A DNA stretch of 32,000 nucleotides, taken from positions 330,001 through 362,000 of the forward strand of contig NC_003276.1 of assembly GCF_000009705.1 (NCBI RefSeq). Direction: 5' to 3'. Shown in pieces: positions 1 through 30,083 of this stretch. Position 1 is the stretch's first letter, and every line of letters begins with the position of its first letter. The notes beneath the pieces were generated by a model. It saw nothing but the letters and a program-made list of their open reading frames with translations, searched no databases and was not told where the DNA came from. The position numbers and the translations under genes were made by a program. This DNA comes from Nostoc sp. PCC 7120 = FACHB-418 (GTDB lineage: Bacteria > Cyanobacteriota > Cyanobacteriia > Cyanobacteriales > Nostocaceae).

Positions 1-1593
1 TATGGTGGTGCTGGGAACGACTCCTTAGACGGTGGTATTGGCAATGACTCCTTGAATGGTGAAGATGGCAATGACAACCTCAAAGGCGATGTAGGAAACG
101 ATATCCTCAATGGCAATGCTGGCAATGATACTTTAGATGGCGGTCTTGGCGACGATGTAATGACAGGCGGTGCTGGCAATGATATTTACTTTGTTGATAG
201 CAGCAATGACACAATCATAGAAGAACTCAATGAAGGAACTGACACTGTTAATGCCAGCATAAACTGGACATTAGGCAATAACCTAGAAAATCTCACTCTC
301 ACAGGCAGCAATGGGATTAATGGTACTGGTAATGCGCTGAAAAATATTATCACAGGGAACAATGGTGATAATATCCTGTCTGGTGGTGATAACGATGACA
401 CTCTCCGAGGCAATGCCGGGAACGATACTCTTTTTGGAGGTTCTGGGAATGACTCCCTCAGTGGCGGTATTGGCGATGATATCCTCAATGGCGCAGATGG
501 CAATGATAACCTCAAGGGAGAAGCTGGCAATGATACGCTGGATGGAGGTGCTGGTAACGATTCCTTAGATGGTGGACTTGGTGACGATGTAATGACAGGT
601 GGCGCTGGTAATGATACTTACTTCGTTGATAGCAGCAATGACACAATCGCAGAAGAAACTGATGGGGGAAGTGATACTGTTAATGCTAGTGTGAGTTGGA
701 CATTAGATGATAATTTAGAAAATCTCACTCTCACAGGCAGCAATGCTATTAATGGGACTGGTAATGCGCTGAGAAATACCATCACAGGTAACAGTGCTGA
801 TAATATCCTGTCTGGTGGTGATAACGATGACACTCTCAGAGGAAATGCTGGCAACGATATTCTCAATGGAGGTGCTGGTAACGATTCCTTAGATGGTGGA
901 CTTGGTGACGATGTAATGACAGGTGGCGCTAGTAATGATACTTATTTCGTTGATAGCAGCAATGACACCATCATAGAAGAAGCTGATGGGGGAACTGATA
1001 CTGTTCGTGCCAGTATTACGCTAACTTTAGGCGACCACTTAGAAAATCTCATCTTGATCGGTAATAGCCCAATTGATGGTACTGGTAATGCTTTAAGAAA
1101 TAATATTACTGGTAATGTCGCAAACAACATCTTATCTGGTGGTGCTGATAATGACACCATAATCAGTGGAGATGGAGATGATACGCTTTATGGCGATAGT
1201 GGTAATGATACTTTAACTGGCGGGAACGGCAACGATATACTCGTGGGTGGTATGGGTAGTGATCGCTTGACTGGCGGTAATGGTAAAGATACTTTTGCTT
1301 TCTCTGCTCCAATTACCGATGGCATCGACACGATTACAGACTTTAATCCCCTTGACGATCTCCTTCGTGTTGACGCTGCTGGATTTGGTGGTGGGCTTGT
1401 AGCTGGTACTCTGCTTGCAAGTCAGTTTGTTTTGGGTACAGCAGCCAAGACTACAAGCGATCGCTTTATTTATAATCAATCCACAGGTGCGTTATTCTTT
1501 GATGTTGACGGCACAGGTTCTAGCAGTCAAGTTCAGATTGCTACTCTATCGAATAAACCTGTGATTAATGCGACGAATATCTCGGTAATTTAA
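1..1593 (+). CDS. RTX (hemolysin-type) calcium-binding repeat exoprotein, 5'-partial (runs off the left edge)
   Basis: Frame 1 is open from base 1 (YGGAGNDSLDGGIGNDSLNG...), so the ATG at 52 is internal. There are dozens of GGxGxD / GNDxL nonapeptide repeats. A larger module (GGLGDDVMTGGAGNDxYFVDSSNDTIxEE..GxDTVxAS..WTL..NLENLTLTG) occurs three times. The non-repeat C-terminal ~110 aa (DTITDFNPLDD...FIYNQSTGALFFDVDGTG) is typical of type I secretion substrates. Confidence 0.85.
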   Translation, partial: YGGAGNDSLDGGIGNDSLNGEDGNDNLKGDVGNDILNGNAGNDTLDGGLGDDVMTGGAGNDIYFVDSSNDTIIEELNEGTDTVNASINWTLGNNLENLTLTGSNGINGTGNALKNIITGNNGDNILSGGDNDDTLRGNAGNDTLFGGSGNDSLSGGIGDDILNGADGNDNLKGEAGNDTLDGGAGNDSLDGGLGDDVMTGGAGNDTYFVDSSNDTIAEETDGGSDTVNASVSWTLDDNLENLTLTGSNAINGTGNALRNTITGNSADNILSGGDNDDTLRGNAGNDILNGGAGNDSLDGGLGDDVMTGGASNDTYFVDSSNDTIIEEADGGTDTVRASITLTLGDHLENLILIGNSPIDGTGNALRNNITGNVANNILSGGADNDTIISGDGDDTLYGDSGNDTLTGGNGNDILVGGMGSDRLTGGNGKDTFAFSAPITDGIDTITDFNPLDDLLRVDAAGFGGGLVAGTLLASQFVLGTAAKTTSDRFIYNQSTGALFFDVDGTGSSSQVQIATLSNKPVINATNISVI

Positions 1594-1882: not shown

Positions 1883-3298
1883 GGTTCTTCCGGTAGTTTT
1901 ATGGTGTTTATTAGAATTGACTTGATTTTAATAACTTATAATTTAGTGATATCAATGCCTATAAGATAGATTACATAGGCATTTAGTAAATATCAAGCAT
2001 AGTTAAAGAACTCTAAAATTATCATCTATATTATAATATAGTAAAGTTTTAGGCGATCGCTATGAAGTTTCCAGTAGAACAAATCCTGAATCTTCCCGAT
2101 ATGAAAGTATTAGATTTTCAAGAACTTGAAGGTGAAGAAATAATTATAACGATAGAAAAAAGTGTGAACTATTCGACTTGTCCTTGGTGTGGTCAAATGA
2201 CTCACAGTATACATCAAAATCACTGGCGAATAATTCATGATTTACCGTGGAATAAAAAACCAGTGTTATTAAAAATAAATCGTCGGCAATTTAAATGTCA
2301 TAAGTGTAAAAAAGTATTTAGCGAACAACTAGACTTTGTAGATAAAAGTAAAGGATATACTAAAAGATTAGCGACCGACATAGTTCAACAAGTATTAAAT
2401 AGTAATATCCGGAGTGTTGCCCAAAGAAATGGATTAAGTGATGAAGAAGTAGAATCAATGTTAAAAAAGCAAGTCTCGCACATATTAAACATTAACCTAA
2501 GTCAGGTAAAAAAGTTAGGTATAGATGAAATAGCTTTAGTTAAAGGAAAAGGAAACTACTTAGCAATATTAGTGGATTTAGATAGTCATAAACCAATTGA
2601 GATAGTGCAATCAAGACGAATAGAAGATATTCGTGAAGTACTTGTCAGTTGGGGAGTTGAGATACTTAATCAAATTGAAGAAGTGAGCATTGACCTCTGG
2701 TTGCCTTATAAAAATTTAGTAGAAGAGTTAATGCCAAATGCTAATATAACTGCTGATAGATTTCATGTAATGAAACAAGTAAATGACGAATTAGATACTA
2801 TGCGTAAAGCTGAAAAGAAAGCAGCTATATCGCTAGATAATAAATCAGAAAAAGAGCGAATATTAGAGGCATTGAATAAGAGTAAATATGCGATTATTAA
2901 AAATGAAGACTCTCTAAATGAAAAGCAAAGAGAAAAATTAAAATCTGTGCAAGAGGTGTCGCCAAATCTCGCCAAAATGCACTCACTTAAAGAACAATTT
3001 CGAGATATATTTGAAACAACTAAATCCTGGGGAGATAGTATAATAAAACTATTGGATTGGATGTATGATGCACTTTCATATTTCCCGAAAAGTATAGGTA
3101 CAATAGTTAGATGGTTTGGTGAAATAGTCGGTTATTTTGACGGAAGAACCACAAGTGGTGCTGTAGAAGGAATTAATAATAAACTCAAGTTAATTAAAAG
3201 ACTTGGATATGGCTTTCGTAACTTTACCAATTTCAGATTACGCAGTTTGTTAAACTGGCATTTTACTATTAATTCTCCATAAAATTAACTGAAGAACC
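1883..3298 (+). mobile_element. ISL3-family insertion sequence (~1.4 kb)
   Basis: Terminal inverted repeats are GGTTCTTCCGGTAGTTTTATGG (1883-1904) and the reverse complement of 3277-3298, GGTTCTTCAGTTAATTTTATGG (19/22 match). The GGxTCTTC start is typical of ISL3. They enclose a single transposase ORF. I could not identify a clean 8-bp target duplication. Confidence 0.8.
2062..3282 (+). CDS. ISL3 family transposase
   Basis: N-terminal zinc-finger region (CPWCG...H...FKCHKCKKVF). DDE-ISL3 motifs LGIDEIALVKGKGNYLAILVDL, SIDLWLPYKN and ADRFHVMKQVNDELD. Characteristic C-terminus GINNKLKLIKRLGYGFRNFTNFRLR. Confidence 0.9.
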   Translation: MKFPVEQILNLPDMKVLDFQELEGEEIIITIEKSVNYSTCPWCGQMTHSIHQNHWRIIHDLPWNKKPVLLKINRRQFKCHKCKKVFSEQLDFVDKSKGYTKRLATDIVQQVLNSNIRSVAQRNGLSDEEVESMLKKQVSHILNINLSQVKKLGIDEIALVKGKGNYLAILVDLDSHKPIEIVQSRRIEDIREVLVSWGVEILNQIEEVSIDLWLPYKNLVEELMPNANITADRFHVMKQVNDELDTMRKAEKKAAISLDNKSEKERILEALNKSKYAIIKNEDSLNEKQREKLKSVQEVSPNLAKMHSLKEQFRDIFETTKSWGDSIIKLLDWMYDALSYFPKSIGTIVRWFGEIVGYFDGRTTSGAVEGINNKLKLIKRLGYGFRNFTNFRLRSLLNWHFTINSP

Positions 3299-4191: not shown

Positions 4192-5419
4192 ATGATTAGG
4201 CACAGTAGACATACTAGTGAATCTTGGAGAGCTTTACCGTGGAAGAAATTCCGCCGTAACCTTTTCCGCCTTCAAAAGCGCGTGTACAAAGCGGTTCTTG
4301 TTGGAGACAAGCGGAAAGCTAGGTCACTTCAAAAGCTTATTCTTAAATCCACCTCGGCTCGATTCCTGGCAATAAGACAAGTATCTCAGCTAAATGCTGG
4401 CAAAAAGACGGCAGGTATTGATGGCAAAAAATCCCTCTCATTTGAAGAACGCTTCAACCTTGAAGAACTACTGAGAATGAACAGTGGAAATTGGAAGCAT
4501 CAAGGACTACGGGAAATCCCCATCCCCAAAAAGGACGGGACTACCAGAATTCCCCGAACAGGGTACACCTCAAGGGGGAGTGGTTAGCCCAATATTAGCG
4601 AACATCGCACTCAACGGGATTGAAAGTATTCACCGATCCAAAGCCAAAGGGCAAATCATTGAGCCATCAGTCCGATACGCTGACGATATGGTAATTATAC
4701 TAAAACCCAAAGATAACGCGATAGAGATACTTGAAAGAATCAGCGAGTTTCTCCGCAAACGCGGAATGCAAGTAAGCCAAAAGAAGACCAAAATCACCGC
4801 CGCGACAGATGGGTTTGATTTCCTCGGCTGGCACTTTAAAGTCCAGAAAAACGGCAAGTTTAAAAGCACCCCTTCAGTGGACAACTTCAAAGCTTTCCGT
4901 AAGAAAGTAAAACACATCGTCAACAACTCGAATTATGGTTCTATAGTCAAAGCCCAAAAGCTTTCCCCAATAGTTAGAGGCTGGAGGAACTACCACAAGT
5001 TCTGTAAGATGGATGGGTCAAAGCATTCCCTTTGGTTCCTAAACCATAGAACCTACACGGTATTCACAAAGGAATCAAAACATACACGCCAATCTAGCGA
5101 AAAGCTAATTAAAAAGGCGTTCCCATTAGTTCCTAACTCCGAAAACAAACACGTTATGGTTCAAGGAATAAAATCCCCCTATGACGGAAACCTGACCTGC
5201 TGGAGCAAGCGTAACAGTAAGCTTTACGATGGTCACACCTCTAAAGCTCTCACAAAGCAAAACCATAAATGTGCATCCTGTGGTCTGAAGTTCATCGGTG
5301 AAGAACGGGTTCACCTACATCACCGAGACGGAAATCATGACAACTGGAAACCAAATAATCTTGAAGCATTACATGAGTCATGCCACGATTATCGGCATAT
5401 GAGCAAAACCGAAAGGTAA
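4192..5419 (+). pseudogene. Group II intron reverse transcriptase/maturase/HNH protein, disrupted by an internal deletion plus frameshift
   Basis: The N-terminus WRALPWKKFRRNLFRLQKRVYKA...GIDGKK...IPKKDGTTR (RT domains 0-1) is in one frame (4192-4587). The sequence then resumes in another frame (4484-5419) at GTPQGGVVSPILANIALNG and VRYADDMVII (RT domains 4-5). About 120-140 aa normally between these (PLGIP..., SYGFRP...) is missing. The maturase region and the HNH motif (CASCG...HLHHRDGNHDNWKPNNLEALHESCH) are present. Confidence 0.8.
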
Positions 5420-5428
5420 GAACATCGG

Positions 5429-5462
5429 GAGCCGTGTGCAGCGAAAGTTGCACGCACGGATC
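5429..5462 (+). ncRNA. Group II intron domain V
   Basis: GAGCCGTGTGCAGCGAAAGTTGCACGCACGGATC is 34 nt and has the AGC triad, a GAAA tetraloop and the 2-nt AC bulge. All pairs are canonical except G3 opposite A32, where the consensus is a G-U wobble. Confidence 0.8.
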
Positions 5463-5693
5463 TAACAGAGAGGGACGGGGAATAATATCCCCTCTCGACT
5501 CTAACCTACGGTGAAGATGTGGGATGGCGAATACGCCGTTGGGTTACAACACCTAAAGTCTTACGATTAATCGCCTGCTGAATGTGAGCAGGACTTTGGA
5601 CAAAAAGAAGTCCAAATATGTATCTGCTGGAATGACAATACACGAACTACTTTTCCCTTTTTACGGAATGTTAAAAGTAAGGTCGAATTCACG

Positions 5694-6458
5694 TTAGATA
5701 AGCAGTTTTGTAGACATTTTTTCCAGTTTAATTACTTTAAGTAGATTTTTCCAGTCTTCAGCCACCCCTAAATCCTGGGAACCTGTAAGGAGCAGTTCTG
5801 CTAGCGTTGTCAAAGCATCGTACCAAATACCGTTTTTTGCGTAGATGGAGGCTTGTTCCTGTGGTAACAATTGTTTAAATTCATCACGTAATGCGGCATC
5901 CAAATTCACACGTTGCACCCAGCCTTCTACATAATCCAATGTCGCTGATTGGTTAGGGTTACATACAACTCTAACTTTGAAGAACCAGTGATATGGCTTG
6001 TTAGTTTCTAGGAAAGCCGTAGTCTTTTGTAGTTGCACTCGAACAATTCCAGGTACTGGGGGTACTGAAATATCTGCGCGATGGATTGTTTTATTTTGAT
6101 CGGTTTGTAAAACAAATTCGATCGCCTGAATGGAAGATTGATTATAGGGAACATAGAACCAAAAGCTGGGCTGTTCTACACTAGTTAAGCCCCACACCTG
6201 AGTAATTGTGGTTTCTCCTGCACCCTGATTCAAGCGTTGTTCATAGCTTGGAACAAGAGCGGTTAAAGGCAAATCCAGTGCAGTACAATCTCCTCGTGAG
6301 GCTCCTTCGCCTCGGTTCCCTGGTAAACCGCGATCGGGTGGTGGCGGTGGTGGGTTAAAGCGAATTGGTGCCGATTTTTGGGATAAGGCTGGCGAAGTGC
6401 TAAAACAGTTGATCAAAATTACACTGAATGCAATTAGTGAAGCTAGTCGCTGAAGCAT
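5694..6458 (-). CDS. Secreted DUF928-like protein
   Basis: Signal peptide MLQRLASLIAFSVILINCFSTSPALSQ, then PPPPPPDRGLPGNRGEGASRGDC, LTALVP, PSFWFYVPY and YHWFFKV..VC motifs that I recognise as the cyanobacterial DUF928 family. It lies 104 nt downstream of, and co-oriented with, the CHAT-CHASE2 gene. Confidence 0.7.
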   Translation of the reverse strand: MLQRLASLIAFSVILINCFSTSPALSQKSAPIRFNPPPPPPDRGLPGNRGEGASRGDCTALDLPLTALVPSYEQRLNQGAGETTITQVWGLTSVEQPSFWFYVPYNQSSIQAIEFVLQTDQNKTIHRADISVPPVPGIVRVQLQKTTAFLETNKPYHWFFKVRVVCNPNQSATLDYVEGWVQRVNLDAALRDEFKQLLPQEQASIYAKNGIWYDALTTLAELLLTGSQDLGVAEDWKNLLKVIKLEKMSTKLLI

Positions 6459-6562
6459 AATTTTTAATACTCGCCAAAGGCGAGAAACAAGCTACGTAAT
6501 TTGTAATTAACAAGCGTTTAAAGTCATCTCTATTTTTTAGTAATCACAAAAATATGTGTAGT

Positions 6563-8908
6563 TTACGCAGAGCGGGGAAAATATCTCGTAAAGTAGGCAA
6601 TTAGGATAATACTACTAATGAGGGCGATCGCAGAGGGAATCAGTGGTATCCAAGTGCTGTACTGAATTAAAACAACAAAGCATATTCCGTAGAGGCTGGC
6701 GATCGCGATTGAAGTTACTATTCCTAAATAGAACAATGGCCGAATGTACCAAGCCAGTAAACTCCCTGTTAACGACCATCCCCAAATCCAAATTGTTTCT
6801 TGCCAAACAGACCAAGCCCAGATGAGCGATCGTCCATCGAGGGCTGCACTTAACAATTGACTAATCATTTGCGCTTGCAGAATAACACCTGGTATTTTCT
6901 CGATCGCACCTTGATTTGTGATATTGGGTGTAAATGAGTAATCTTCAAAGCTTTCGGCTGTTGTACCAATCAGAACAATTTTGTTTTTGACTGTATTAGC
7001 ATTTATTTTTCCTGTGAGTACTTCTGTTAACGATACCTGCGGCACAAATTCCTGTAGCGATCGCTCTTTACGATAATTCAACAAAATTTGGTGTCCTGAA
7101 GCATCGATGCCTTGATATCCACTAGTGTGTGCTGTTAGTGGTTTAAAAGCTGTCTTGCCGAGTTTCCAAGCACCATCATTGGTAAATTTTAGAGAAATAT
7201 TGTGAGCAGCCAAGTAACGCAGTGCTACTTGTACGCTGAAAGCATATTGGGCTTTGCAAGGTGAAGAGGGCGGCGGTGTTAATGCTAATAAATGGCGACG
7301 GACAATGTTATCTGAGTCGATTACTAAATCACTAAAGCCTAAGCGTTCTGGTGTTATTTCCGGCGGGGGTTTGATGCCGGGATGCTCAGATTGGGCATCG
7401 CTAACTCGACAGACTGCACTTAGATGTTTACTGTTATATAGATGCTTTGCCAATTCTGGTAACTCTGGCTTAACAGGGCGATCACGGTAAATATCTAATC
7501 CTATTGATTGTGGTTGATATGCCTCTAATTTTTTCAACAATTTCAACAGTGATTCATCTGAGAGAGAACCCTGGGGTTTTTCTTGAGACTGTGATTGCAC
7601 ATCTTCTTCGGTGATCGTCACAACCAACAAGCGAGAATCAGGCTGTTCATCTGGGCGTAGTTGCTGCAAGCGATCGAACGCTTGTAACTCCAATCCTTGC
7701 AGCATTCCTACGTATCTTACACCTATGACAAAAAGGGCGATCGCCAAACTCGCGCAACCAAGCCAAAGAAAATGAGGGACAGACAAACTCTTCCCGTAGG
7801 CCCCTTTGCTCTTTTGCCCCTCCATCTCTTTACCTATCAACTCCTGCCAACTAGCTGGTATCTCTGCGAGATTTTGATAAATCACAGGTAGCCAACTTGC
7901 ACAGGGAAATTGTCCATCCAATCCTTGCAGTCTTTCTCTAGCTTCGCGGACTGCTAGATAAAGCGATTTGCCTCCAGCGTATGCTTGCAAAAAATGCTTG
8001 AGAAATGTTTGCGCCACCCGGTCTGGAACAGGTTCGCGCATGACAATCAACTGGGGAATCTGTAAAGAAGCAAATTCTCGCGCCAGTCCTAAACCATCAC
8101 ATGAATTAAAAATTGCTAACTTTAAACCGCGCTCAACTGCTTGCCTGAGAGCATACTTTAACTGACTAATTGTCAAACTTTCTGTTTGGTTAATGTAGAT
8201 TTGACCTGTTTCTCCTGTACTTTGGCTTGAACTATGTCCAGCAAAAAATAGAATATCCCAATTTTGCTGCCAGAGATTATCTGTTAAGTCTTCACAAGAT
8301 GGTTCTACAAGAAAGTGAATTTTTGTATTAGGCAGTTGTTCTAGAAGTAAACGGTCTGTGCCTATATTGATTCCATGACTATCACCTAATAATGCCAAAA
8401 TTTTCACAGTTGCAGTTGATATTGGGGAAAATTCGACTTTTTCATAAATAGGCGTACTTAAGGCGATTTCTGCATTTGGATAACGTTCTATTAACTCCCA
8501 AAGATGCCAAGGGAGTTTTTGAAGTTGATAGTCTTGAGTTTGCAAGATTACCCGAATTATGTCAGATGTTTGAAGCTTTTCGAGCCATTTTTCGCGGATC
8601 GGGCGGAAAGATTCTGATTGTAACCAATAGTTAAAGCAGTCGCGTAATTGTTGAGCTGCTTCAAGACACTGTTGCTCATTTGCAATTAACAGCTTTTGTT
8701 TTGTTAGCCCTTTAGGACGAGCGGCAAAATCTAAGCTACGATAAATCGATTGCCAACAATTAAAATTTAACGGTAATTCTTTCTCTGGCGGAAGTTCGCC
8801 GATAACTTCACTTTCAGGGCGACTATTTTCTTCTCCAATCTGGAGAGTAACTGGAAACCCAGTCTCAAAGCTCCCTTTGCCAAATTTCAAAACTATCAAT
8901 TTAGTCAC
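6563..8908 (-). CDS. CHAT (caspase-fold) domain fused to a CHASE2 membrane sensor
   Basis: GTG start preceded by GGAG. The N-terminal ~370 aa carry a CHAT His/Cys dyad context (DILFFAGHSS ... LAIFNSCDGLGLA). A TM helix follows near residues 385-405 (HFLWLGCASLAIALFVIGV). Next is a ~300-aa CHASE2-like region (LELQAFDRLQQLRP, LLVVTITEEDV, GLDIYRD, DSDNIVRR). Three C-terminal TM helices close the protein, with no C-terminal output domain. Confidence 0.8.
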   Translation of the reverse strand: MTKLIVLKFGKGSFETGFPVTLQIGEENSRPESEVIGELPPEKELPLNFNCWQSIYRSLDFAARPKGLTKQKLLIANEQQCLEAAQQLRDCFNYWLQSESFRPIREKWLEKLQTSDIIRVILQTQDYQLQKLPWHLWELIERYPNAEIALSTPIYEKVEFSPISTATVKILALLGDSHGINIGTDRLLLEQLPNTKIHFLVEPSCEDLTDNLWQQNWDILFFAGHSSSQSTGETGQIYINQTESLTISQLKYALRQAVERGLKLAIFNSCDGLGLAREFASLQIPQLIVMREPVPDRVAQTFLKHFLQAYAGGKSLYLAVREARERLQGLDGQFPCASWLPVIYQNLAEIPASWQELIGKEMEGQKSKGAYGKSLSVPHFLWLGCASLAIALFVIGVRYVGMLQGLELQAFDRLQQLRPDEQPDSRLLVVTITEEDVQSQSQEKPQGSLSDESLLKLLKKLEAYQPQSIGLDIYRDRPVKPELPELAKHLYNSKHLSAVCRVSDAQSEHPGIKPPPEITPERLGFSDLVIDSDNIVRRHLLALTPPPSSPCKAQYAFSVQVALRYLAAHNISLKFTNDGAWKLGKTAFKPLTAHTSGYQGIDASGHQILLNYRKERSLQEFVPQVSLTEVLTGKINANTVKNKIVLIGTTAESFEDYSFTPNITNQGAIEKIPGVILQAQMISQLLSAALDGRSLIWAWSVWQETIWIWGWSLTGSLLAWYIRPLFYLGIVTSIAIASLYGICFVVLIQYSTWIPLIPSAIALISSIILIAYFTRYFPRSA

Positions 8909-9490
8909 GTCGCTTCACTCCGAATTAAAAATCTCCATTGATAAATTTAGTTGTTCAGTATCCTTTTATTTTGCAGTCAGAATAAAAATTATCTTTCAAC
9001 AATTGTAGATAGACCGTTATTAGATATCATCTACAGTTCTCTTATTTATGCTGTCAATATCGAGATTTTAGTTTGCAAGTTGTTTGAAAAGTGCTGGCTG
9101 ATGTGTCAAAAATTTAGATCCGTCATTATCTTCCTTAAAAAGGAGGACTTTGATTTATTTCCCCCTTTTTTTAAGGCTAGGGAGGATTTAAGATTTTGGA
9201 AACACGCCCTACCTCTGTTTTTGAAGCTACGGCGATGTACACAAGTCCTTTAATGCATTGACCTGCAACTCACGTTATGTTAGGCAATAAGTATAAAAGA
9301 TTAAGGCGTTGCTGAGTATAGAAATATGAATTTGTATCATGCAGAGTCGCAGAGACTAAGAGTTGAGAAGAATTAAATTTTAAATTTCAAATTCAGCAAT
9401 GCCAAAGATAAGTTTGGTCAATTTCAGGAAAATGTCACTCAAGGAGAGTAGTTTAAATTTATTCGCTGTTTATATAAAAATTAAAGTCTC

Positions 9491-10705
9491 ATGCATTTAA
9501 GGCAAAATATTATCGAAATTTTTTCCACCTTTATGCTATTTAAAGGTGATAGTTTTGACCATTGGGTTACTGATTCTAAGCTGCGACGGAGTATGCACAA
9601 TTGTGTAGAAGAGTCTTCTAAGCAAGAGTCAGAAATATTTTGGGCTATTTACTGGCATCGGATTTGGCAAACGCAAGCAAGTCCAATTGCAGTTGCTCAT
9701 ATTGCAGCCTATTTACAGGAAGTTTGTTACTGGGTTGCGAGAAAAATGAAAATGAATGTACTAGGTCAACATTCTGTCGCTGATTTTTTCCAAACAGCGA
9801 TCGCTCGTGTTGATAAAGTTATGAAAGGCTTTAACCCACAATTGGGTTCAAATTTGAAAATCTATGCAGAATACACCTTTAGCAATCTGATTAAAGATTT
9901 GTTACGCAAGCGTCAAGAAGTTGATATCTGTACTGACTGGGGATTGCTGCACAAACTGAGTCAAAAGCGTTTGGTAGAATCTCTCAAACAGGCAGGTTAT
10001 CCATCCCAAATCATTGAGCGTTATGTTCTAGCTTGGAGTTGTTTCTTGCAATTTTATGCGCCCCACGATGTTGCAACTGCTCACAAACTCATTAAACCAG
10101 ATAATTTGACATTACAGGCGATCGCACAACTTTACAACACCGAACGTCTCAGTCAGCTAAGTTCTCCCAGTCCAGCCTGCACTCCAGAAAGTTTGGAAAC
10201 TTGGTTAGTTACTTGTGCTAAAGCAGTGCGTTCCTTTCAATATCCCACCTCAGTTTCTCTGGATATTCCTGCACCTGGACAAGAAACGGGCGAATTACTC
10301 GACCGACTGACGAACAATTTTCAAGACTCGGTGTTAGATGAAATAATTATCCAAGAAGAAGTAGAAAACATTGCGTTGCGGAGTACAGAAATTAATCGAG
10401 TTTTGAGCGATGCGCTGGCAAAATTAGATCCCCAAGCTCAAGTACTTCTGCAAACATACTACAAGCAAGAATTAACCCAGCAGCAAATTGCTCAACAGCT
10501 AGGAATCAAACAATATACAGTTTCTCGGCAACTAACTAAAATCAAAAAGACATTACTAGTAGAGTTAGCCCAGTGGAGTCAAAAAACACTGCATATTCCG
10601 GTGAAATCTGACGTAATCGACAGTATGAGTAATTCTCTAGAAGAATGGTTGATTGCTCAGTATCGCCCTCTCATTTTGTTGTCGCCAGTGGAGTCTTTAA
10701 AATGA
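9491..10705 (+). CDS. Sigma-70 family-like protein (atypical, 404 aa)
   Basis: Region 2-like segment GFNPQLGSNLKIYAEYTFSNLIKDLLRKRQ. C-terminal region 4 helix-turn-helix LLQTYYKQELTQQQIAQQLGIKQYTVSRQLTKIKKTLL. The gene is divergent from the CHAT-CHASE2 gene across 580 bp. Confidence 0.7.
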   Translation: MHLRQNIIEIFSTFMLFKGDSFDHWVTDSKLRRSMHNCVEESSKQESEIFWAIYWHRIWQTQASPIAVAHIAAYLQEVCYWVARKMKMNVLGQHSVADFFQTAIARVDKVMKGFNPQLGSNLKIYAEYTFSNLIKDLLRKRQEVDICTDWGLLHKLSQKRLVESLKQAGYPSQIIERYVLAWSCFLQFYAPHDVATAHKLIKPDNLTLQAIAQLYNTERLSQLSSPSPACTPESLETWLVTCAKAVRSFQYPTSVSLDIPAPGQETGELLDRLTNNFQDSVLDEIIIQEEVENIALRSTEINRVLSDALAKLDPQAQVLLQTYYKQELTQQQIAQQLGIKQYTVSRQLTKIKKTLLVELAQWSQKTLHIPVKSDVIDSMSNSLEEWLIAQYRPLILLSPVESLK

Positions 10706-11853
10706 TTTTTGATGTCACCTCAATTCCTGAACAGCTCACCTTGGAAATTTCGTTATCATCGCAAACCCTAGAATTACAAGGTTTTTCCACATCAGGCGCA
10801 CGCTGGCGAGGTCGTCTTAACCAAATGTGCTTAGATGCATTTTTACTGTGGTTGAGAGAAGAAGTTGAAAATGCCAGAGTTTGGACTCAAACAGCAGCGT
10901 TACCTAGCTTTTGGGAATTTGTAAATGGAACTGCGATCGCTTGTGAAGAGATAAGATTAGTATTGATTCCCACAACGGCAATAGATACAGACGAATTGCG
11001 CGTACCCCAAGAATGGGTAGATATTCCCGATTGGGTTGCTGATTATTATATTGCAGTACAAGTTAATCCTAATGGTGGCTGGGTGACAATTTGCGGATAT
11101 ACCACCCATCGTCAATTGAAAACTAAAGGGGTTTATGATGCAAGCGATCGCGCTTACTGTTTAGATGAAAATGATTTAATTAAAGACATCAATGGTTTGT
11201 GGATTACCCGACAACTTTGTCCAGAGGAAATTTTACGTGAGTCAGTTGCACCTTTACCGACATTACCTTTAGCACAAGCAGAAAACTTACTCGAACGATT
11301 AGGTAATTCTGAAGTAGTCTTTCCGCGTTTAGCAATTCCCTTTGAACTTTGGGGTGCATTATTAACACATGGCGGCTGGCGACAAGGGTTGTACGAACGA
11401 CGACAAGGGCTGCCTGAACAGTGGTCAATTCAGGAATGGTTGCAAGCAGGAGTATCGAATTTAGCACAGCAGCTTGGTTGGGGAATGACTAGATTGCAAT
11501 TAGCTGCTCGTGGTCTGCGAAGCCGAGAAACTGATGAATCAAGTGTCTCTTTGTCCCGGCAGTTGACACTTGCTGGTCAAGCTTACGAGTTGCGCGTATT
11601 TCAAAGAGGTAACTTAGAAGACAATATATGGCGGTTTGAATTACGCAATGCAAATCCAGATGCAATGATTCCAGCAGGATTTAGACTCAGACTGTTAACC
11701 GAAGATTTACAGCCTTTTGTTAATAATGAGGATACAGCAACAGAAGCGATATCTCAGCTTTATATCGATGTAGAGTTGGAGCCAGGAGAGGGTTTAGTAT
11801 GGGAAATTGAGCCAACACCGGATGACTATGATAGAGAAATTTTACGGTTTTGA
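10702..11853 (+). CDS. DUF1822-like protein (cytoplasmic, 383 aa)
   Basis: I chose the ATG at 10702 because it forms an ATGA overlap with the sigma-like stop codon (10703-10705); the longer ORF from 10645 would overlap by 61 nt. There is no signal peptide or TM helix. Motifs such as RVPQEWVDIPDWVADYYIAVQVNP match my recollection of the cyanobacterial DUF1822 family, which usually sits next to a sigma-like gene. Confidence 0.65.
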   Translation: MIFDVTSIPEQLTLEISLSSQTLELQGFSTSGARWRGRLNQMCLDAFLLWLREEVENARVWTQTAALPSFWEFVNGTAIACEEIRLVLIPTTAIDTDELRVPQEWVDIPDWVADYYIAVQVNPNGGWVTICGYTTHRQLKTKGVYDASDRAYCLDENDLIKDINGLWITRQLCPEEILRESVAPLPTLPLAQAENLLERLGNSEVVFPRLAIPFELWGALLTHGGWRQGLYERRQGLPEQWSIQEWLQAGVSNLAQQLGWGMTRLQLAARGLRSRETDESSVSLSRQLTLAGQAYELRVFQRGNLEDNIWRFELRNANPDAMIPAGFRLRLLTEDLQPFVNNEDTATEAISQLYIDVELEPGEGLVWEIEPTPDDYDREILRF

Positions 11854-12062: not shown

Positions 12063-14129
12063 TTATAAGCGATTAACCGAACATGATATGACTCCTGACT
12101 CCTGAATTCTCATTTCATTTAGTACTTGTTGAGCCACAAGCTGAACATCACCTCGCTTATCTACTAGCCATCTCTGAGCCTCGACAATTGGCTGTTGATT
12201 TTCAGCTAAAGTTGTTTTTGCTTGGGTGTTTGTCTCATTTCCTATCTCTTCATCCAGCGTCACCCATTGGGTAATAACTGCTCTTTGACGCAATGGTTCA
12301 CTGGGACTTAAAGGCATTCCTCCACGTCCGGTGACAACAAAACTATTACTTTGCCCACGTCTAGGAGTGCAGCCCTGAGCGATTTGCTGTGATGCATCAA
12401 CCAAATTTACAGGTAGTTCCACTAATCCCCGACTAGGGTCAACATCGGGTGTGTTAAGTTCTATACTGCCACTCAATTCCGGAGTTTTACCTCTAGCGGT
12501 AATGTCACTTGCGGAAGTACGTTCATTCTGCGACTGGGTGCCGAAGATGCCGATAGCTTTTACTCTGACCCGACCGCCACGAAAGTCATTGGAAGTGGCT
12601 GTGATATCGCTATTTTCAGATGCGACTAAGAATTTAGTGTCAATATTAACATCACCCCCAATCACATTTTCGCCAGTAGCGTCAGCAGTAATGTTGCTAT
12701 TTCGACGCAATAATACCAAATCTTTTACACGCAAGGTAATAGTTGCCTGTGTTTGATTAGGATCAGTATTGATGCTGCGAGTGTTAGCCGTCAAAGTGCC
12801 ATTGTCCAAATGAACAGAACTCGCATTGATAATTAAACTTCCTGCATTCCCTATTCCTCGACTTCTAACAAACATTCCAGCTCTATCCTTAACTAAAAGC
12901 TCACGGGTGTTTATAATCAAATTCCCCGCTTTACCTACACCAAATGTAGTAGCACTTATTGTTGCTCTATCTTTAAGGACTAATACCGGAGTGTTAATTG
13001 TCACCGAACCAGCCTTTCCTGCTCCAGAAGTTTGAGTAGATAAGATAGTATCAATCGGAAATTCTACAGGAGTGCCAATCAATTCCACGGAATCTAAGGC
13101 ATTTATTGTCAAATCTCCTCCCGAACCCGTGTCAAAGACTTGAGTTACTATAGATGCTCCTCCCTTCATAATTAATTGTTGGACATTAATGCTGACATTT
13201 CCACCCGGTGCTGAAGTGAAAGTATTTGCTCTGATGACAGAGGTTTCCAAATTTAACTGTGAGGCTCGGAAGGAAATTGCACTACTCTCTTGTTGACTTT
13301 GAATGTTGCTATCTTCTTCAGGAGTAATATTGACAAAACTTCTAAAAATTTGAATATCTCTAAAGTTGCTGACATTTTGATAGTTTAACGTCCAGCCTTG
13401 GTGTGTTTGATTGAGATTGACCTGATTAACTCCAGTGACACTACCTAATTCAATTCGTCCCCCTGGAGCGTTTAGAAAAGCTCTCTCTATGGTTACATTG
13501 CCACCGACAAGAGCTAAAGTTTTACCTAAAGGTACTCTGAGTCCCTGCCCCTCCTCGCTACTCAATTGTCCACCAATCCCCTGCACGCGAATATCTCCAG
13601 GATTCTCCCCAAATTGTAAGCCTGTAGGAATATTTATAGTTAATAAGGGTGTTTTTTGTGGAGCCGTTGCACTAAACTCAAAGCCATCAGCAAATTTCAA
13701 CCTATTAGCAGTGCTACCGACAAAGGAACCGCCAATATCCAACCGTGCATTCTGCCCAAAAATAATTCCATTAGGATTAATTAGAAATAGATTGGCTGTA
13801 GCGTTAGCGCGGATTAATCCGTCAATGTTAGAAACAGAGCCACCTGTTACCCGACTAATAATATTTTGAATATTTGTAGGATTATTAAAGAAAGCTGTAC
13901 CGCTAGTAGGCACAGAAAACTCTTGAAAACTGTGAAAAAGATTACTTCCTGCTTGAGTTCCTCTCTCAATAATGCGGGTGTTCCCCTCTGTTGTGATATT
14001 GGAATTAATTGGGAGAGTAGTATCCGGGGTGATTTGAGCTAGTGAGCAGTTTGACCAAAAAACTGTAGTGCTACTTATAGTAATTCCTAGTCCTTGCAGC
14101 CAATACCAATGTATAGATATCCCAGACAT
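12063..14129 (-). CDS. Filamentous-hemagglutinin N-terminal (TPS) domain beta-helix exoprotein, TpsA-like
   Basis: Signal peptide ending SLA/QITPD. Classic TPS domain: GTQAGSNLFHSFQEFSV, NIISRVTGGSVSNIDGLIRANATANLFLINPNGIIFG, ARLDIGGSFVGST. Degenerate beta-helix repeats follow. Conserved C-terminal CTPRRGQSNSFVVTGRGGMPLSPSEPL motif. GGAGAG precedes the ATG. Confidence 0.85.
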   Translation of the reverse strand: MSGISIHWYWLQGLGITISSTTVFWSNCSLAQITPDTTLPINSNITTEGNTRIIERGTQAGSNLFHSFQEFSVPTSGTAFFNNPTNIQNIISRVTGGSVSNIDGLIRANATANLFLINPNGIIFGQNARLDIGGSFVGSTANRLKFADGFEFSATAPQKTPLLTINIPTGLQFGENPGDIRVQGIGGQLSSEEGQGLRVPLGKTLALVGGNVTIERAFLNAPGGRIELGSVTGVNQVNLNQTHQGWTLNYQNVSNFRDIQIFRSFVNITPEEDSNIQSQQESSAISFRASQLNLETSVIRANTFTSAPGGNVSINVQQLIMKGGASIVTQVFDTGSGGDLTINALDSVELIGTPVEFPIDTILSTQTSGAGKAGSVTINTPVLVLKDRATISATTFGVGKAGNLIINTRELLVKDRAGMFVRSRGIGNAGSLIINASSVHLDNGTLTANTRSINTDPNQTQATITLRVKDLVLLRRNSNITADATGENVIGGDVNIDTKFLVASENSDITATSNDFRGGRVRVKAIGIFGTQSQNERTSASDITARGKTPELSGSIELNTPDVDPSRGLVELPVNLVDASQQIAQGCTPRRGQSNSFVVTGRGGMPLSPSEPLRQRAVITQWVTLDEEIGNETNTQAKTTLAENQQPIVEAQRWLVDKRGDVQLVAQQVLNEMRIQESGVISCSVNRL

Positions 14130-14400: not shown

Positions 14401-15903
14401 TTATCTAACAGATTTTAAGTTTTCAGCTTTATCCACTAAGAAATCAGTAAAGATACTCATAACTGTGCGTTGACGCAATTTAATATTGCCATTAATAGAC
14501 ATCCCTGATTGCAATAGAATTTGGCGTTGATTAATCAGTAACTTCTGTCCATTGAGGCGTACTTTTGCAGAAAAACGCCAGAAATTATAAACTTCGTCTG
14601 GAGGTAGAGCATCAGAACCAATTTCAATTAACTCGCCTTTTATATCACCGTACTCTTGAAAAGGAAAAGAATCAATCCTCACATCTACTTGTTGCCCTTC
14701 TTGCACAAAGCCAATGTCACGGTTGGTGATGTAAACTTTAGCAACTAAGTTATCACTAGGAACGAGTTTAAGAATTGTTTCGCTGGAGTTGACAACAAAT
14801 CCTGCTGTTTGAGCTTTGAGTTCAAACACAGTTCCATCTACGGGAGCAGCAATTTTTTGATATTTCAACGTTTGTTGTGCTTGAGCTAACTCGCTGTCAA
14901 TCTCTGCAATTTGACTATTAATCTCATAAAGTCGTTTCTGATTTTCAATAATTACTTTAGTTAATTGACTATCAATTTCTGCAATTCTTTTATCATTATC
15001 TGTAATTTTAGCGAGTAAGTCTTCTTGAGACAGTGCCGCAGTATTCCGAAATTTTTCATTTGCTTGGGTAACGGCTAACTGTAATCGTTGCTTTTCTTGA
15101 GTTAGGCGCATTACTTCTGCTTGTTTCACATTTACTTCTTGCTCCTGTTTGAGGATTTGCATTCTGGGGTATGCACCCTCTTTATCTAGCATTTTGAGGT
15201 TTTGATAAATTTGGCGATTAATTACTAACACATCTTGAGCGCTACCTAATTGCGCTTGAGTTTGGAGTAATTGTTGTTGTGTCTGTTGCGTTTCTAACTT
15301 AGCTGTTGCCAAGCGTGATTCTAATTCTTGCTGGCGATTTTGCAAGCGTAACTGTTGTTCTCTTGTGAGTATTACTCCGGTAGTTGTGCCGTTTAATTGG
15401 GCGCGATATAATTCGTTTTCGGCAAAGATAGCAGATCGACTTTTAGTTAATAAAGCTAGTTCTGGTTGTATTTTTAAAATAGCTGTTTGCTGTGCTATTT
15501 GCTGCTGTGAAATATTTCCTTGCAACTGACGGCGGTAAAAATCATTTTCTAGTTCTAAAGACTGTTTTGATTGCAACTGAGCCGCGCGACTTTGTTTCAA
15601 GGAAGTAAGTTCTGCCTCAGAAGTTGTTTGTTCTAAGCTAACGAGTATTTCACCTTTTTTGACTCGTTGACCATCTTTAACTAGAATCTTTTTAACAACA
15701 CCGTTAACCGGAGCCTGAATTTCTTTAACTGCGCCTTGTGGTTCTAGTTTACCAGTAGCATGAACTGATTCTTCAATTTTAAATACTGATGCCCAAATTA
15801 TTGTAAAGACACTAACTCCAACGATAGTCCAAGCGATCGCCCTTGACCAAGTAGAAGTTTGTTGTAAAAGAACTGGTTGATCAAATTTGTATTGAATATT
15901 CAT
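14401..15903 (-). CDS. HlyD-family periplasmic adaptor (type I secretion membrane-fusion protein)
   Basis: N-terminal TM helix (WSRAIAWTIVGVSVFTIIWASVF). Lipoyl-like GKLEPQGAVKEIQAPVNGVVKKILVKDGQRVKKGEIL. A long Q/L-rich coiled coil. C-terminal beta-barrel segment (IAAPVDGTVFEL..., GMSINGNIKL). Confidence 0.85.
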   Translation of the reverse strand: MNIQYKFDQPVLLQQTSTWSRAIAWTIVGVSVFTIIWASVFKIEESVHATGKLEPQGAVKEIQAPVNGVVKKILVKDGQRVKKGEILVSLEQTTSEAELTSLKQSRAAQLQSKQSLELENDFYRRQLQGNISQQQIAQQTAILKIQPELALLTKSRSAIFAENELYRAQLNGTTTGVILTREQQLRLQNRQQELESRLATAKLETQQTQQQLLQTQAQLGSAQDVLVINRQIYQNLKMLDKEGAYPRMQILKQEQEVNVKQAEVMRLTQEKQRLQLAVTQANEKFRNTAALSQEDLLAKITDNDKRIAEIDSQLTKVIIENQKRLYEINSQIAEIDSELAQAQQTLKYQKIAAPVDGTVFELKAQTAGFVVNSSETILKLVPSDNLVAKVYITNRDIGFVQEGQQVDVRIDSFPFQEYGDIKGELIEIGSDALPPDEVYNFWRFSAKVRLNGQKLLINQRQILLQSGMSINGNIKLRQRTVMSIFTDFLVDKAENLKSVR

Positions 15904-15936
15904 AATAAATGGGGATGGGGCAGGGGGGAATTGTAC

Positions 15937-15956
15937 GGACGCAATTTATCGCGTCT
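15937..15956. repeat. Degenerate second copy of the AGACGCGATTTATCGCGTCT hairpin
   Basis: GGACGCAATTTATCGCGTCT matches 11994-12013 at 18/20 positions. It overlaps the last three codons (E-T-R) and the TAA stop of the ABC exporter gene. Confidence 0.4.
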
Positions 15957-18935: not shown

Positions 18936-19727
18936 CTAAGCCATTTCTTGCACCTGGTCAGATTTAGGATTAATTCCCATCCAGATTTTCTCTTCTGGCG
19001 ACAATTGATTTAATTGTTGTTGAAACCAATCTTCAAAATTTTCTTGCAGCAATCTTTGGCGCATAAAATCGTCTAACTGGGCAGGAATTAGTTTTTCTAC
19101 ACGCACAATTACCCATGTATTTCCAAAAGCTACGGGTGGTTGAACAACACCAACTTGGCTTGTGTAAAGTAGTTGAGCAAAATTCGGAGTAATACTACCA
19201 AGTTCTACTGGGCCAATAATGCCGCCTCTATCAGCTTCTGCACCTTGAGAATATTTTCGCGCCAGTTCAGCAAAAGAATCTTCTCCTTCTGCTATTCTGA
19301 AGAATAACTCATTGACAACGCTCTTATTTTCAGTTTGAATTAAAGAATAAATAACTCGATCTAAATATTTTTTGCGTTTAAGAAAGTAAGATTCTAGCTG
19401 ATGTCTCCAATTTATTTGTTTGAACTTTTCTACTCTCAGCTTTCGGGTTGCTAAAAGTTTTAATTTTTCCGCATTCAAACCATAACGTAAGCACCAATCT
19501 TTGATTTTTTCTGCGGTTGTCAAATCCCAATGCTGATAAAATTGATCTAGAGCATGAGATATTTCTGCTTGTGTGCAGGTGATTGGTGCAATAGCAGATT
19601 CGATTATCCTCTGTGATAACAATTGCGGAATCAGGTTGTAACTAGCTAAAAAAGGGATAATTTCTTTAGGTATATTGGCATAATCTAACTCAGGTATTGC
19701 GCTGCTTATTTGTAAAACTTTACTCAT
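18936..19727 (-). CDS. Parvulin-type peptidyl-prolyl cis-trans isomerase (PrsA/SurA-like)
   Basis: C-terminal rotamase domain: FAELARKYSQGAEADRGGIIGPVELGSITPNFAQLLYTSQVGVVQPPVAFGNTWVIVRVEK. The gene ends 62 nt upstream of, and is co-oriented with, the ABC exporter gene. Confidence 0.8.
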   Translation of the reverse strand: MSKVLQISSAIPELDYANIPKEIIPFLASYNLIPQLLSQRIIESAIAPITCTQAEISHALDQFYQHWDLTTAEKIKDWCLRYGLNAEKLKLLATRKLRVEKFKQINWRHQLESYFLKRKKYLDRVIYSLIQTENKSVVNELFFRIAEGEDSFAELARKYSQGAEADRGGIIGPVELGSITPNFAQLLYTSQVGVVQPPVAFGNTWVIVRVEKLIPAQLDDFMRQRLLQENFEDWFQQQLNQLSPEEKIWMGINPKSDQVQEMA

Positions 19728-19971: not shown

Positions 19972-20712
19972 TTAAGCAAATGGGGTGGTGAAGTGGTCAA
20001 AAGTCAAAGTGTAGCCAGTCCGTCCACTGAATTGATTGACTTGCAAGAAGTAGTCACCTGATTGGTTAATGTTAGAAATTATATCCGGCGTGATACCACC
20101 TTTAGTAGAACGTGCAATTTCCTCATTTGCATCAACAATCCGATTGTTATTAAAATCCCGAATCAATCGAATGTCAGCATCACCATTTAGGAGTCCGTTC
20201 AGTGTAATGTTGACACCCTCAAAATCCCCCAGGGAGAACTGGTAAGTATCTGCGGTGTCGAAGTCACCCACAATATTAGAGCGACTAACATCACCTGACA
20301 AGTTGCCAAGTTCAAATTCTCTAGGCAAAAGATTACTAAAACCAGATGTTGAATTGGGTGCAGTCGCAGACACAGCAAAATCGTAACTTATAGTGCCTGA
20401 ACTAGCAGCACCGCGAATGACTTGGGCAAAATAAGTCCCTGCATTTTCCTGATTATTGATAGACTCGTCTCTGTTGCTAGACCTAGCGGACAAATCAACC
20501 GATTGGTCATTGGCATCAAAAATCCCGTTACCGTTGTCTCGAAAAAGTAACAGTTCGGGATCACCAACGCTGATATCTGTCACAGACAAATTGAGATTTC
20601 TGGTACTGGTGGTTCTAAACTTAAAAACATCAGTGGTATCAGATGTAGTTAAAGTGAAGTTGTTTCTGAGAACAGGCGTGCTGCCTATTGTACCAAGATC
20701 AAAAGTAGCCAT
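19972..20712 (-). CDS. Tandem PPC (pre-peptidase C-terminal)-like domain protein without a signal peptide
   Basis: Two ~110-aa repeats have the PPC pattern: DTTDVFKFRT...DPELLLFRDNGNGIFDANDQ...AGTYFAQV...YDFAV and DTADTYQFSL...DADIRLIRDFNNNRIVDANEE...GDYFLQVNQ...YTLTF. The N-terminus MATFDLGTIG has no hydrophobic leader. Confidence 0.6.
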   Translation of the reverse strand: MATFDLGTIGSTPVLRNNFTLTTSDTTDVFKFRTTSTRNLNLSVTDISVGDPELLLFRDNGNGIFDANDQSVDLSARSSNRDESINNQENAGTYFAQVIRGAASSGTISYDFAVSATAPNSTSGFSNLLPREFELGNLSGDVSRSNIVGDFDTADTYQFSLGDFEGVNITLNGLLNGDADIRLIRDFNNNRIVDANEEIARSTKGGITPDIISNINQSGDYFLQVNQFSGRTGYTLTFDHFTTPFA

Positions 20713-30057: not shown

Positions 30058-30083
30058 ATTTGCGTAGGAGTTTTCCACGTAAA

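Follow-up and report, generated by a model that had tools for sequence, protein, structure and literature searches.

A predicted CHAT-CHASE2 receptor-protease and its conserved gene neighbourhood on plasmid alpha of Nostoc sp. PCC 7120

Organization of the locus

A window of 32,000 nucleotides from Nostoc sp. PCC 7120 = FACHB-418 (contig NC_003276.1, positions 330,001 to 362,000 of the forward strand; all positions given here are counted within this window) carries a minus-strand gene that joins a putative CHAT protease to a CHASE2 sensor domain. This CHAT-CHASE2 gene and three genes beside it, encoding a DUF928 protein, a sigma factor, and a DUF1822 protein, are the subject of this study (Table 1). 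The product, 781 amino acids (aa) read from a GTG start, is 100% identical to the deposited Nostoc/Anabaena sp. PCC 7120 protein BAB78394.1 / WP_199315952.1, which is annotated as a 'CHASE2 domain-containing protein'. The replicon is plasmid alpha of PCC 7120, and the identical neighbours BAB78393 and BAB78395 are found on plasmid-labelled contigs. The open reading frame (ORF) is the longest possible and begins at the first possible start codon after the upstream stop; as it cannot be extended upstream, the protein has no hidden signal peptide. By numbering from the sigma factor gene alr7311, the CHAT-CHASE2, DUF928, and DUF1822 genes are presumably all7310, all7309, and alr7312, respectively. 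The annotation of another PCC 7120 assembly (DSM107007 tags) divides the CHAT-CHASE2 gene into pieces of 614 and 155 aa, and that of Trichormus variabilis NIES-23 breaks the sigma factor into fragments (294 and 117 aa); strain-specific disruptions or assembly errors may account for these split annotations.

The DUF928 gene (Pfam E 1.5e-56) lies 104 nt downstream of the CHAT-CHASE2 gene on the same strand, and no terminator-like site was found between the two on the minus strand. The sigma factor and DUF1822 genes are divergent from the CHAT-CHASE2 gene and 582 bp away, and the intergenic region 8909-9490 matched no Rfam family. The sigma factor, which has been named SigJ.1.1 (PMC11119718), matches TIGR02937 (E 4.9e-41) with region 2 at residues 73-142 and region 4 at residues 305-355, approximately 160 residues apart. 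The DUF1822 gene (Pfam E 1e-126) starts at 10702 and overlaps the sigma factor stop codon (ATGA), an arrangement in which DUF1822 is, to judge from the sequence, translationally coupled to the sigma factor. The original prediction for this DNA, made from the sequence alone, overlooked the DUF928, sigma factor, and DUF1822 genes as parts of one system.

The protease half

Pfam reports CHAT and CHASE2 as the sole domains of the protein (E<=0.01), with no match to Peptidase_C14. CHAT (PF12770) spans residues 196-332 with E 1.4e-15 and 58 bits (gathering cut-off 24), and CHASE2 (PF05226) follows at residues 390-716 with E 8.4e-65 and 219 bits (cut-off 26.3), covering profile positions 2-256 of 257. 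The original prediction of an N-terminal CHAT domain with CHASE2 after it is thereby borne out, as are the motifs FFAGHS and FNSCDG that it singled out; the first, within ILFFAGHS, holds His225 (codon 8234-8236) and the second, within AIFNSCDG, holds Cys270 (codon 8099-8101). The prediction was also right to place CHAT before the first transmembrane (TM) helix, but it treated CHAT as the sole N-terminal domain, whereas a conserved alpha+beta domain of approximately 112 residues precedes it.

In the AlphaFold2 (AF2) model, which has a mean predicted local distance difference test score (pLDDT) of 77.5, this domain is composed of three strands and three helices (E3-9, E17-26, E33-39, H44-58, H78-96, and H99-111). 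Residues 1-370 were searched against 1.84 billion representative sequences at E<=1e-30, and the 150 best of at least 1,591 matching representative clusters (50% identity) were studied further; the N-terminal domain is strongly conserved across these 150. Residues 1-112 are the counterpart of the constant component that Kaur et al. 2021 (PMC8195603) term 'EACC2'. As no EACC2 profile was at hand, this N-terminal feature was judged from the secondary structure and the family search. Since the Foldseek alignments of the model span approximately 375-390 columns, we also considered whether residues 1-112 might represent a separase-like pseudo-protease half.

Neither His225 nor Cys270 varies among 38 close homologues or among the 150 representatives, which share at most 50% mutual identity, and all 60 relatives that were sampled match CHAT. 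Profile-profile alignment (hhalign) with the canonical TPR-CHAT family from the same loci covers residues 115-326 (210 columns, E 9e-4) and matches His225 to the H of HLATHG and Cys270 to the C of LSACQT; the earlier proposal that the dyad occupies the catalytic positions is thus supported. In the AF2 model, two neighbouring beta strands (E219-223 and E264-268) carry these residues at their C-terminal ends. The best Foldseek match of the protease is Csx29 of Craspase (7zoq_A, E 3.9e-9; also 8d9f_A and 7y84_C), with human separase, a SAVED-CHAT filament, and the anti-sigma factor DdvA (E 5e-7) among the further matches; Csx29, separase, and SAVED-CHAT range from E 4e-9 to 1e-7, while caspase-8, -6, -3, and MALT1 are weaker. 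Sequence searches of the Protein Data Bank (PDB), run with each half of the protein (protease and CHASE2) and with a profile of 60 family sequences, returned no meaningful match, so the solved CHAT structures are linked to this protein by fold comparison only. Together, these comparisons support a predicted CHAT dyad, His225/Cys270, that is intact.

An alternative is that CHAT functions as a binding platform only, or that CHASE2 and its helices are a mere anchor without sensing. Pseudo-caspase domains do exist in separase, and the Pfam CHAT match spans only profile positions 123-271 of 289, which is the C-terminal half. Yet a His/Cys pair that is invariant across the 150 representatives would be unexpected in a dead enzyme, and CHASE2 is strongly conserved and linked to a dedicated exported partner, DUF928. 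We therefore consider a non-proteolytic scaffold very unlikely.

The protein is also not an orthologue of HetF, which Nostoc/Anabaena needs to differentiate heterocysts and to divide. The two have in common that they are CHAT proteases of cyanobacteria; however, HetF lacks the CHASE2 domain and the TM architecture, and the match to its NCBIfam model NF045509 is weak (residues 191-345, E 5e-8, 31.7 bits against an equivalog cut-off of 1200).

Membrane topology, the CHASE2 domain, and the linker

Topology was examined over 121 family members. Hydropathy peaks at 2.13 in TM1, approximately residues 378-399, where the AF2 model has a helix at 377-400, and both hydropathy and the model place three further helices at the C-terminus, at 701-721, 725-750, and 757-776, with the protein ending at residue 781. 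The protein had been expected to end 10-15 residues after the third of these helices; the position of the end is correct, but the tail is shorter, approximately 5-10 residues here and 0-30 residues across the 121 family members. The 15 residues before TM1 contain on average 3.07 lysines and arginines and the 15 after it only 0.26, together with 2.0 aspartates and glutamates. The three-residue loop between TM2 and TM3 averages 1.37 lysines and arginines, the loop between TM3 and TM4 has none, and the C-terminal tail has 1.83. On average across the same 121 members, no strongly hydrophobic N-terminal segment is present. This positive-inside pattern and the lack of an N-terminal signal make export of a 377-residue N-terminal domain very unlikely, and they support a predicted topology in which the N-terminus and C-terminus lie inside, CHASE2 lies outside, and CHAT is cytoplasmic, as had been proposed before.

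The opposite topology, with CHAT in the periplasm and CHASE2 in the cytoplasm, can be argued from two relatives: the structural match DdvA has a periplasmic TPR-CHAT, and a separate TPR-CHAT protein in the window has a signal peptide. Against these stand the absence of a signal peptide from an ORF that cannot be extended and the charge bias around TM1, with which the other loops are consistent. CHASE2 is, moreover, reportedly an extracytoplasmic domain in all other receptor classes. We regard the opposite topology as exceedingly improbable.

The CHASE2 domain itself carries the invariant motifs GLDIY.D, RR, and IGT.A..F.D and two invariant cysteines, C500 and C551, in the 38 close homologues, and the two cysteines could form a periplasmic disulfide. 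The CHASE2 part of the AF2 model has no confident match to a solved structure; weak matches (E 5e-3 to 6e-2) are to ASKHA/RNase-H-like folds, namely AnmK, the BiP nucleotide-binding domain, and NTPDase1/CD39. Canonical CHASE2 receptors (adenylate cyclases, Ser/Thr and His kinases, and GGDEF/EAL proteins) share the same cassette of TM1, CHASE2, and three TM helices, but their output domain follows the last helix, whereas the protein described here ends there and has its cytoplasmic domain before TM1. The expectation that no output domain would be found at the C-terminus extends to the family. A CHASE2 hidden Markov model (HMM) of our own detected the domain in 56 of the 150 representatives, always after the N-terminal module; in all 56, the CHASE2 profile is succeeded by no more than 90 residues, and a C-terminal output domain is absent throughout. 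Because no domain comes after the final helix, any output would have to be through the protease.

How a periplasmic event could reach the protease depends on the segment between CHAT and TM1. Residues 361-375 have pLDDT values below 50 in the AF2 model, and residues 346-377 contain no conserved position in 120 homologues. On the earlier question of whether the TM1 linker could transmit a conformational change in CHASE2, these results speak against rigid helical transmission; with a disordered and variable linker, activation by proximity or oligomerisation would be more likely than a rigid piston or torque. Caspases and SAVED-CHAT are switched on by proximity or oligomerisation.

The same linker bears on a self-processing tether, in which a signal induces autocleavage within the linker and so frees from the membrane a soluble EACC2-CHAT module that would act elsewhere. 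The disorder of residues 351-377 is expected of a protease-accessible segment, an autopeptidase model has been proposed (PMC8195603), and DdvA is proposed to self-cleave its juxtamembrane linker in trans (PMC11506125). However, the linker has no conserved motif in the 120 homologues, whereas a loop of DUF1822 does, and the sequence data do not separate cleavage in cis from cleavage of a partner. Self-processing is compatible with the receptor-protease reading as a first step, and we consider it quite unlikely as the alternative to it.

Family distribution and the conserved cassette

All 120 best database matches consist of exactly CHAT and CHASE2 (58-100% identity, 770-876 aa), and a scan of one genome per species confirmed at least 599 relatives, nearly all of them cyanobacterial. 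The layout differs from that of the usual CHASE2 receptors, as had been noticed from the sequence, but it is not unusual, being the form that a large family of cyanobacterial proteins normally takes. From the relatives, 80 related loci were kept for a census of neighbours within 10 kb (locus numbers below are those of this census). All 80 are cyanobacterial except one labelled 'uncultured bacterium', and the family is concentrated in filamentous, multicellular cyanobacteria. Three loci (L035, L040, and L080) contain two complete, divergently oriented CHAT-CHASE2 and DUF928 cassettes within 10 kb, and several Nostoc genomes supply more than one locus, so the family is multi-copy within genomes.

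Residues 1-370 match the at least 1,591 representative clusters as a single unit in proteins of 373-1829 aa. Among 60 sampled representatives the C-terminal partner is CHASE2 in 19, AAA_16 in 7, nSTAND1 in 6, and WD40 in 4. Across the family the N-terminal effector module thus stays constant while the C-terminus, presumably sensory, varies, with CHASE2 as the commonest partner; an N-terminal effector with a C-terminal sensor is the layout of NLR-like proteins. An N-terminal alpha+beta domain with the caspase-fold domain directly after it, a variable C-terminus (CHASE2 with TM helices, STAND NTPases, or repeats), and sigma factor and DUF1822 neighbours are the features of the EACC2-caspases, and the CHAT-CHASE2 protein has all of them.

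DUF928 lies downstream on the same strand in 71 of the 80 loci by tblastn and in 72 by iterated HMM search, and DUF928 relatives at only 41-45% identity still directly follow a CHAT-CHASE2 gene. In 99 of 114 homologues the DUF928 N-terminus is hydrophobic and signal-peptide-like, followed by a conserved PPPP..RG..G.RG..ASRG.C. Given this N-terminus, DUF928 is probably periplasmic and shares the compartment of CHASE2, and it is a probable Sec-exported partner of that domain.

The initial tblastn census (DUF1822 in 25 and DUF928 in 71 of 80 loci) undercounted DUF1822, as a divergent DUF1822 was found in L036 by Pfam. The iterated HMM census gives DUF1822 in 69, DUF928 in 72, and the sigma factor in 25 of the 80 loci, and the assumption that DUF1822 always occurs with a sigma factor was dropped. 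DUF1822 lies directly upstream of the CHAT-CHASE2 gene on the same strand in 55 loci, and the sigma factor is never found without an adjacent DUF1822 (25/25 loci). The conserved unit is a cassette of three genes, DUF1822, CHAT-CHASE2, and DUF928, to which a sigma factor is often added. In the window the order is rearranged, with DUF1822 coupled to the sigma factor.

Kaur et al. 2021 (PMC8195603) call DUF1822 a TPR protein. The AF2 model (pLDDT 82) disagrees, as it is mixed alpha/beta with a C-terminal beta-sandwich and contains no TPR repeats. DUF1822 as a known anti-sigma factor or as an analogue of Csx30/Csx31 was rejected because Foldseek gave no significant match. The model has one long low-confidence loop (residues 268-279), which carries a small motif, G-[MVL]-R-S in the clade of the window and F-R-[SNK] in a divergent short clade; across clades the motif reads [GF]x-R-[SNK], and it is conserved although the loop around it differs in both length and sequence. 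Because separase cleaves after arginine and Craspase cuts short motifs, the loop is a candidate CHAT cleavage site; by this analogy R273 (in the 383-aa form) could be the arginine concerned, which is speculation.

A further element, CTCTCTACGA-N13-TTTATGCA (also TACGA-N13-TTTATGCA), is conserved upstream of 18 of 26 alr7311-type sigma factor genes. It lies 90-200 nt upstream of the sigma factor in L004, L006-L014, L016-L018, L020, L062, and L066, and its regular expression matches 28 times in 3.05 Mb against approximately 4 expected by a naive estimate, with extra copies between genes nearby. Either a sigma-dependent promoter or the site of a regulator could be represented by it. The element is missing from the window at 8909-9490 and from the closest relatives, L001 and L002. 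A sigma-dependent promoter common to the genes in the window was sought and rejected, as the TACGA-N13-TTTATGCA of the sister loci is absent.

The composition of these loci can also be read as that of a cell-death or defence executioner, in which active CHAT degrades many cytoplasmic proteins or triggers caspase-like or pore-forming effectors and kills the cell when an external death or phage signal arrives. Such a model is explicit in a 2020 review (PMC7475262), where ligand binding to the CHASE2 of membrane-bound orthocaspases leads to autocatalysis and cell death, and it fits the conflict-system framing of Kaur et al. 2021. The concentration of the family in filamentous, multicellular cyanobacteria, the several copies per genome, the nearby caspase-family genes (TPR-CHAT homologues no more than 10 kb from the CHAT-CHASE2 gene in 30 of the 80 loci, and a Peptidase_C14 gene in L082), and the position on a plasmid amid mobile elements all agree with it. 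However, no PADLOC defence model was matched by any cassette protein, so a known defence system is rejected for now, and the cassette has no conserved gene for a toxin or a pore-forming effector. The tight linkage of DUF1822, with the sigma factor in a third of the loci, points to a dedicated substrate and a transcriptional output and away from bulk proteolysis. We regard an executioner as unlikely.

Proposed mechanism and its precedents

A four-pass inner-membrane receptor-protease that signals to a cytoplasmic partner through CHAT is the best explanation for the locus, and we give it roughly an even chance. From computed domain identity, predicted topology, dyad conservation, and gene linkage we infer that the sensor is coupled to the protease, and likewise the sensing, activation, substrate, and sigma release that follow. 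CHASE2, probably with DUF928, would sense a periplasmic cue. Sensing would alter the oligomeric state or packing of the receptor, and the resulting proximity or oligomerisation would activate CHAT. Active CHAT would then cut a specific cytoplasmic partner, for which DUF1822 is the best candidate, at the arginine-containing motif in its disordered loop. Where a sigma factor is present, as in the window, cleavage might free or activate alr7311 and alter transcription. That DUF1822, CHAT-CHASE2, and DUF928 form a self-contained and so far uncharacterised type of transmembrane signalling module of multicellular cyanobacteria, in which exported DUF928 and CHASE2 sense an external cue and CHAT cuts DUF1822 at R273 and releases an alr7311-type sigma factor is offered tentatively and is, in our judgement, unlikely.

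Several points weigh against this receptor-protease. We know of no ligand reported for any CHASE2 protein since 2003. The profile alignment that places the dyad scores modestly (hhalign E 9e-4, probability 23%), and the DUF1822 model has no significant match in the PDB, including anti-sigma factors and Craspase (best E 0.037). No conserved promoter motif joins the genes of the window. DUF1822 occurs in 44 of the 80 loci with no sigma factor gene within 10 kb, so DUF1822 must be more than a plain anti-sigma factor, and the sigma step is either optional or encoded elsewhere. Finally, the literature searched contains no mention of the tags all7310, all7309, and alr7312.

The idea is not new. Asplund-Samuelsson 2012 (PMC3501461) described a metacaspase-CHASE2 receptor that faces outward with its protease in the cytoplasm, and Jiang 2010 (PMC2853523) also lists the metacaspase-CHASE2 protein of Trichodesmium erythraeum. 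This metacaspase/orthocaspase (Peptidase_C14) fusion has an identical topology and logic, with one plus three TM helices around CHASE2. However, its protease belongs to family C14, whereas that of the window protein is CHAT; as no Peptidase_C14 match was obtained here, the Trichodesmium fusion is parallel rather than orthologous. Kaur et al. 2021 (PMC8195603) described EACC2-caspase proteins with a variable C-terminus, a sigma factor of the extracytoplasmic function (ECF) type, and DUF1822, and proposed that a stimulus induces autopeptidase activation, the last step being the sigma factor. Their EACC2-caspase-CHASE2 group has the same layout and the same sigma factor and DUF1822 neighbours as the CHAT-CHASE2 protein. 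DUF928 is not mentioned in their main text, although it is present in 72 of the 80 loci here, and DUF1822 proves more widespread than the sigma factor (69 against 25 loci). A CHASE2 gene beside a DUF928 gene was noted in Nostoc punctiforme in a 2017 survey. As the architecture and its logic are already in print (PMC3501461, PMC7475262, and PMC8195603), the interpretation is correct without being new, and what is new here is the context, namely the conserved DUF1822 / CHAT-CHASE2 / DUF928 cassette.

Precedents for a link between CHAT proteases and sigma factors are provided by Craspase, with Csx29, Csx30, and RpoE, and by DdvA-DdvS (PMC11506125). The type III-E Craspase (Cas7-11, the TPR-CHAT protein Csx29, Csx30, Csx31, and RpoE) is the best structural match, with an allosterically switched CHAT and a substrate that controls an ECF sigma factor. 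However, its input is RNA, whereas here it would be a membrane sensor. None of the components that define Craspase (Cas7-11/gRAMP, TPR-CHAT, and Csx30) was recognised in the cassette; its proteins have no PADLOC match and its DUF1822 no significant match in the PDB with its Craspase entries, and unlike Craspase there is no Cas7-11, CRISPR RNA (crRNA), or TPR domain. DdvA of Myxococcus xanthus (PDB 8ROT) has a periplasmic TPR-CHAT, a cytoplasmic zinc anti-sigma domain, and a single TM helix. By contrast, the window protein has a predicted cytoplasmic CHAT, four TM helices, and CHASE2, and lacks an anti-sigma or TPR domain.

If the reading as a self-contained module is true, the module would be to the cytoplasm what regulated intramembrane proteolysis is to the membrane, would parallel Craspase in the form of a membrane receptor, and would give the first functional handle on CHASE2. 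The CHAT-CHASE2 gene as found is deposited and annotated, an ordinary member of a described family, and several publications have already put forward the idea of an outward-facing CHASE2 sensor that drives a cytosolic caspase-like protease. What it still offers is a starting point for experiments, as PCC 7120 is genetically tractable and the likely partners are adjacent on plasmid alpha.

Other features of the window

Table 1. Features of the CHAT-CHASE2 locus and of the remainder of the window (positions within the window)
Feature	Position	Strand	Evidence
CHAT-CHASE2, whole gene	6563..8908	-	ORF, Pfam domains, 100% identity
N-terminal alpha+beta domain, residues 1-112	8573..8908	-	AF2 secondary structure, conservation
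CHAT (caspase-fold) protease domain (predicted), residues ~115-350	7859..8566	-	Pfam, hhalign, Foldseek, invariance
Juxtamembrane linker, residues 351-377, K/R-rich, variable, predicted disordered	7778..7858	-	pLDDT, alignment
TM1, residues 378-399	7712..7777	-	Hydropathy, AF2
Predicted periplasmic CHASE2, residues 400-700	6809..7711	-	Pfam, invariant columns, positive-inside analysis
Three C-terminal TM helices, residues 701-721, 725-750, 757-776	6581..6808	-	Hydropathy, AF2
Five-residue cytoplasmic tail (predicted) and stop codon, no output domain	6563..6580	-	ORF, family-wide tail lengths
DUF928 protein, 254 aa, signal-peptide-like N-terminus	5694..6458	-	Pfam
Divergent intergenic region, CHAT-CHASE2/sigma factor, 582 bp	8909..9490	.	
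Sigma-70/ECF-type sigma factor alr7311, 404 aa	9491..10705	+	TIGR02937, Pfam regions 2 and 4
DUF1822 protein, 383 aa from ATG at 10702	10702..11853	+	Pfam; the 383-aa form is the deposited form
RTX protein, 513 aa, 13 calcium-binding nonapeptide repeat matches	52-1593	+	
ISL3 transposase	2062-3282		
Group II intron, split reverse transcriptase/maturase ORF	4192-5505	+	Rfam Intron_gpII
Two-partner-secretion (TPS) domain protein, 688 aa, signal peptide	12063-14129	-	
HlyD-family protein and 975-aa ABC exporter (N-terminal cyclic-nucleotide-binding, C39 peptidase, ABC transporter)	14401-18873	-	
Peptidyl-prolyl cis-trans isomerase (PPIase) gene	18936-19727		
PPC-domain protein gene	19972-20712		
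TPR-CHAT protein, 868 aa, signal-peptide-like N-terminus MSNAFPLFRYLLLLLITAFIFVTVSPVLKPSHA	21072-23678	+	CHAT E 1.9e-57
TnpB/Cas12f-like gene	30060-31295		

With its signal-like N-terminus, the 868-aa TPR-CHAT protein is probably extracytoplasmic, like the TPR-CHAT of DdvA. No gene for a ShlB/FhaC-type transporter was found in the window, which encodes a 688-aa TPS-domain protein whose relatives occur in 25 of the 80 loci. The 513-aa RTX protein is likely a type I secretion substrate.

C39-peptidase ABC exporters and their HlyD partners occur near the cassette in 13 of the 80 loci. In L014, two small ORFs, 4701-5129(-) and 6539-6886(-), lie beside extra copies of CTCTCTACGA-N13-TTTATGCA and begin with double-glycine leaders (...EEASVIEGG|Y and ...AAETISGG|Y). 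Double-glycine leaders mark the type of substrate that C39-peptidase ABC exporters process. The occurrence of such ORFs and exporters near the cassette hints at a secreted-peptide circuit.

The reverse transcriptase/maturase of the group II intron is read in two frames, with RVT_N at 4192-4587 and RVT_1 and GIIM at 4484-5419, and the Intron_gpII domain V at 5427-5505 (59.6 bits) lies approximately 190 nt from the end of the DUF928 gene. An HAD-IIIB acid phosphatase gene is apparently split by an inserted transposase into an N-terminal part at 29297-29806(-) and a C-terminal part at 27175-27732(-), and this 526-aa transposase at 27737-29317(+) lies between the two parts.

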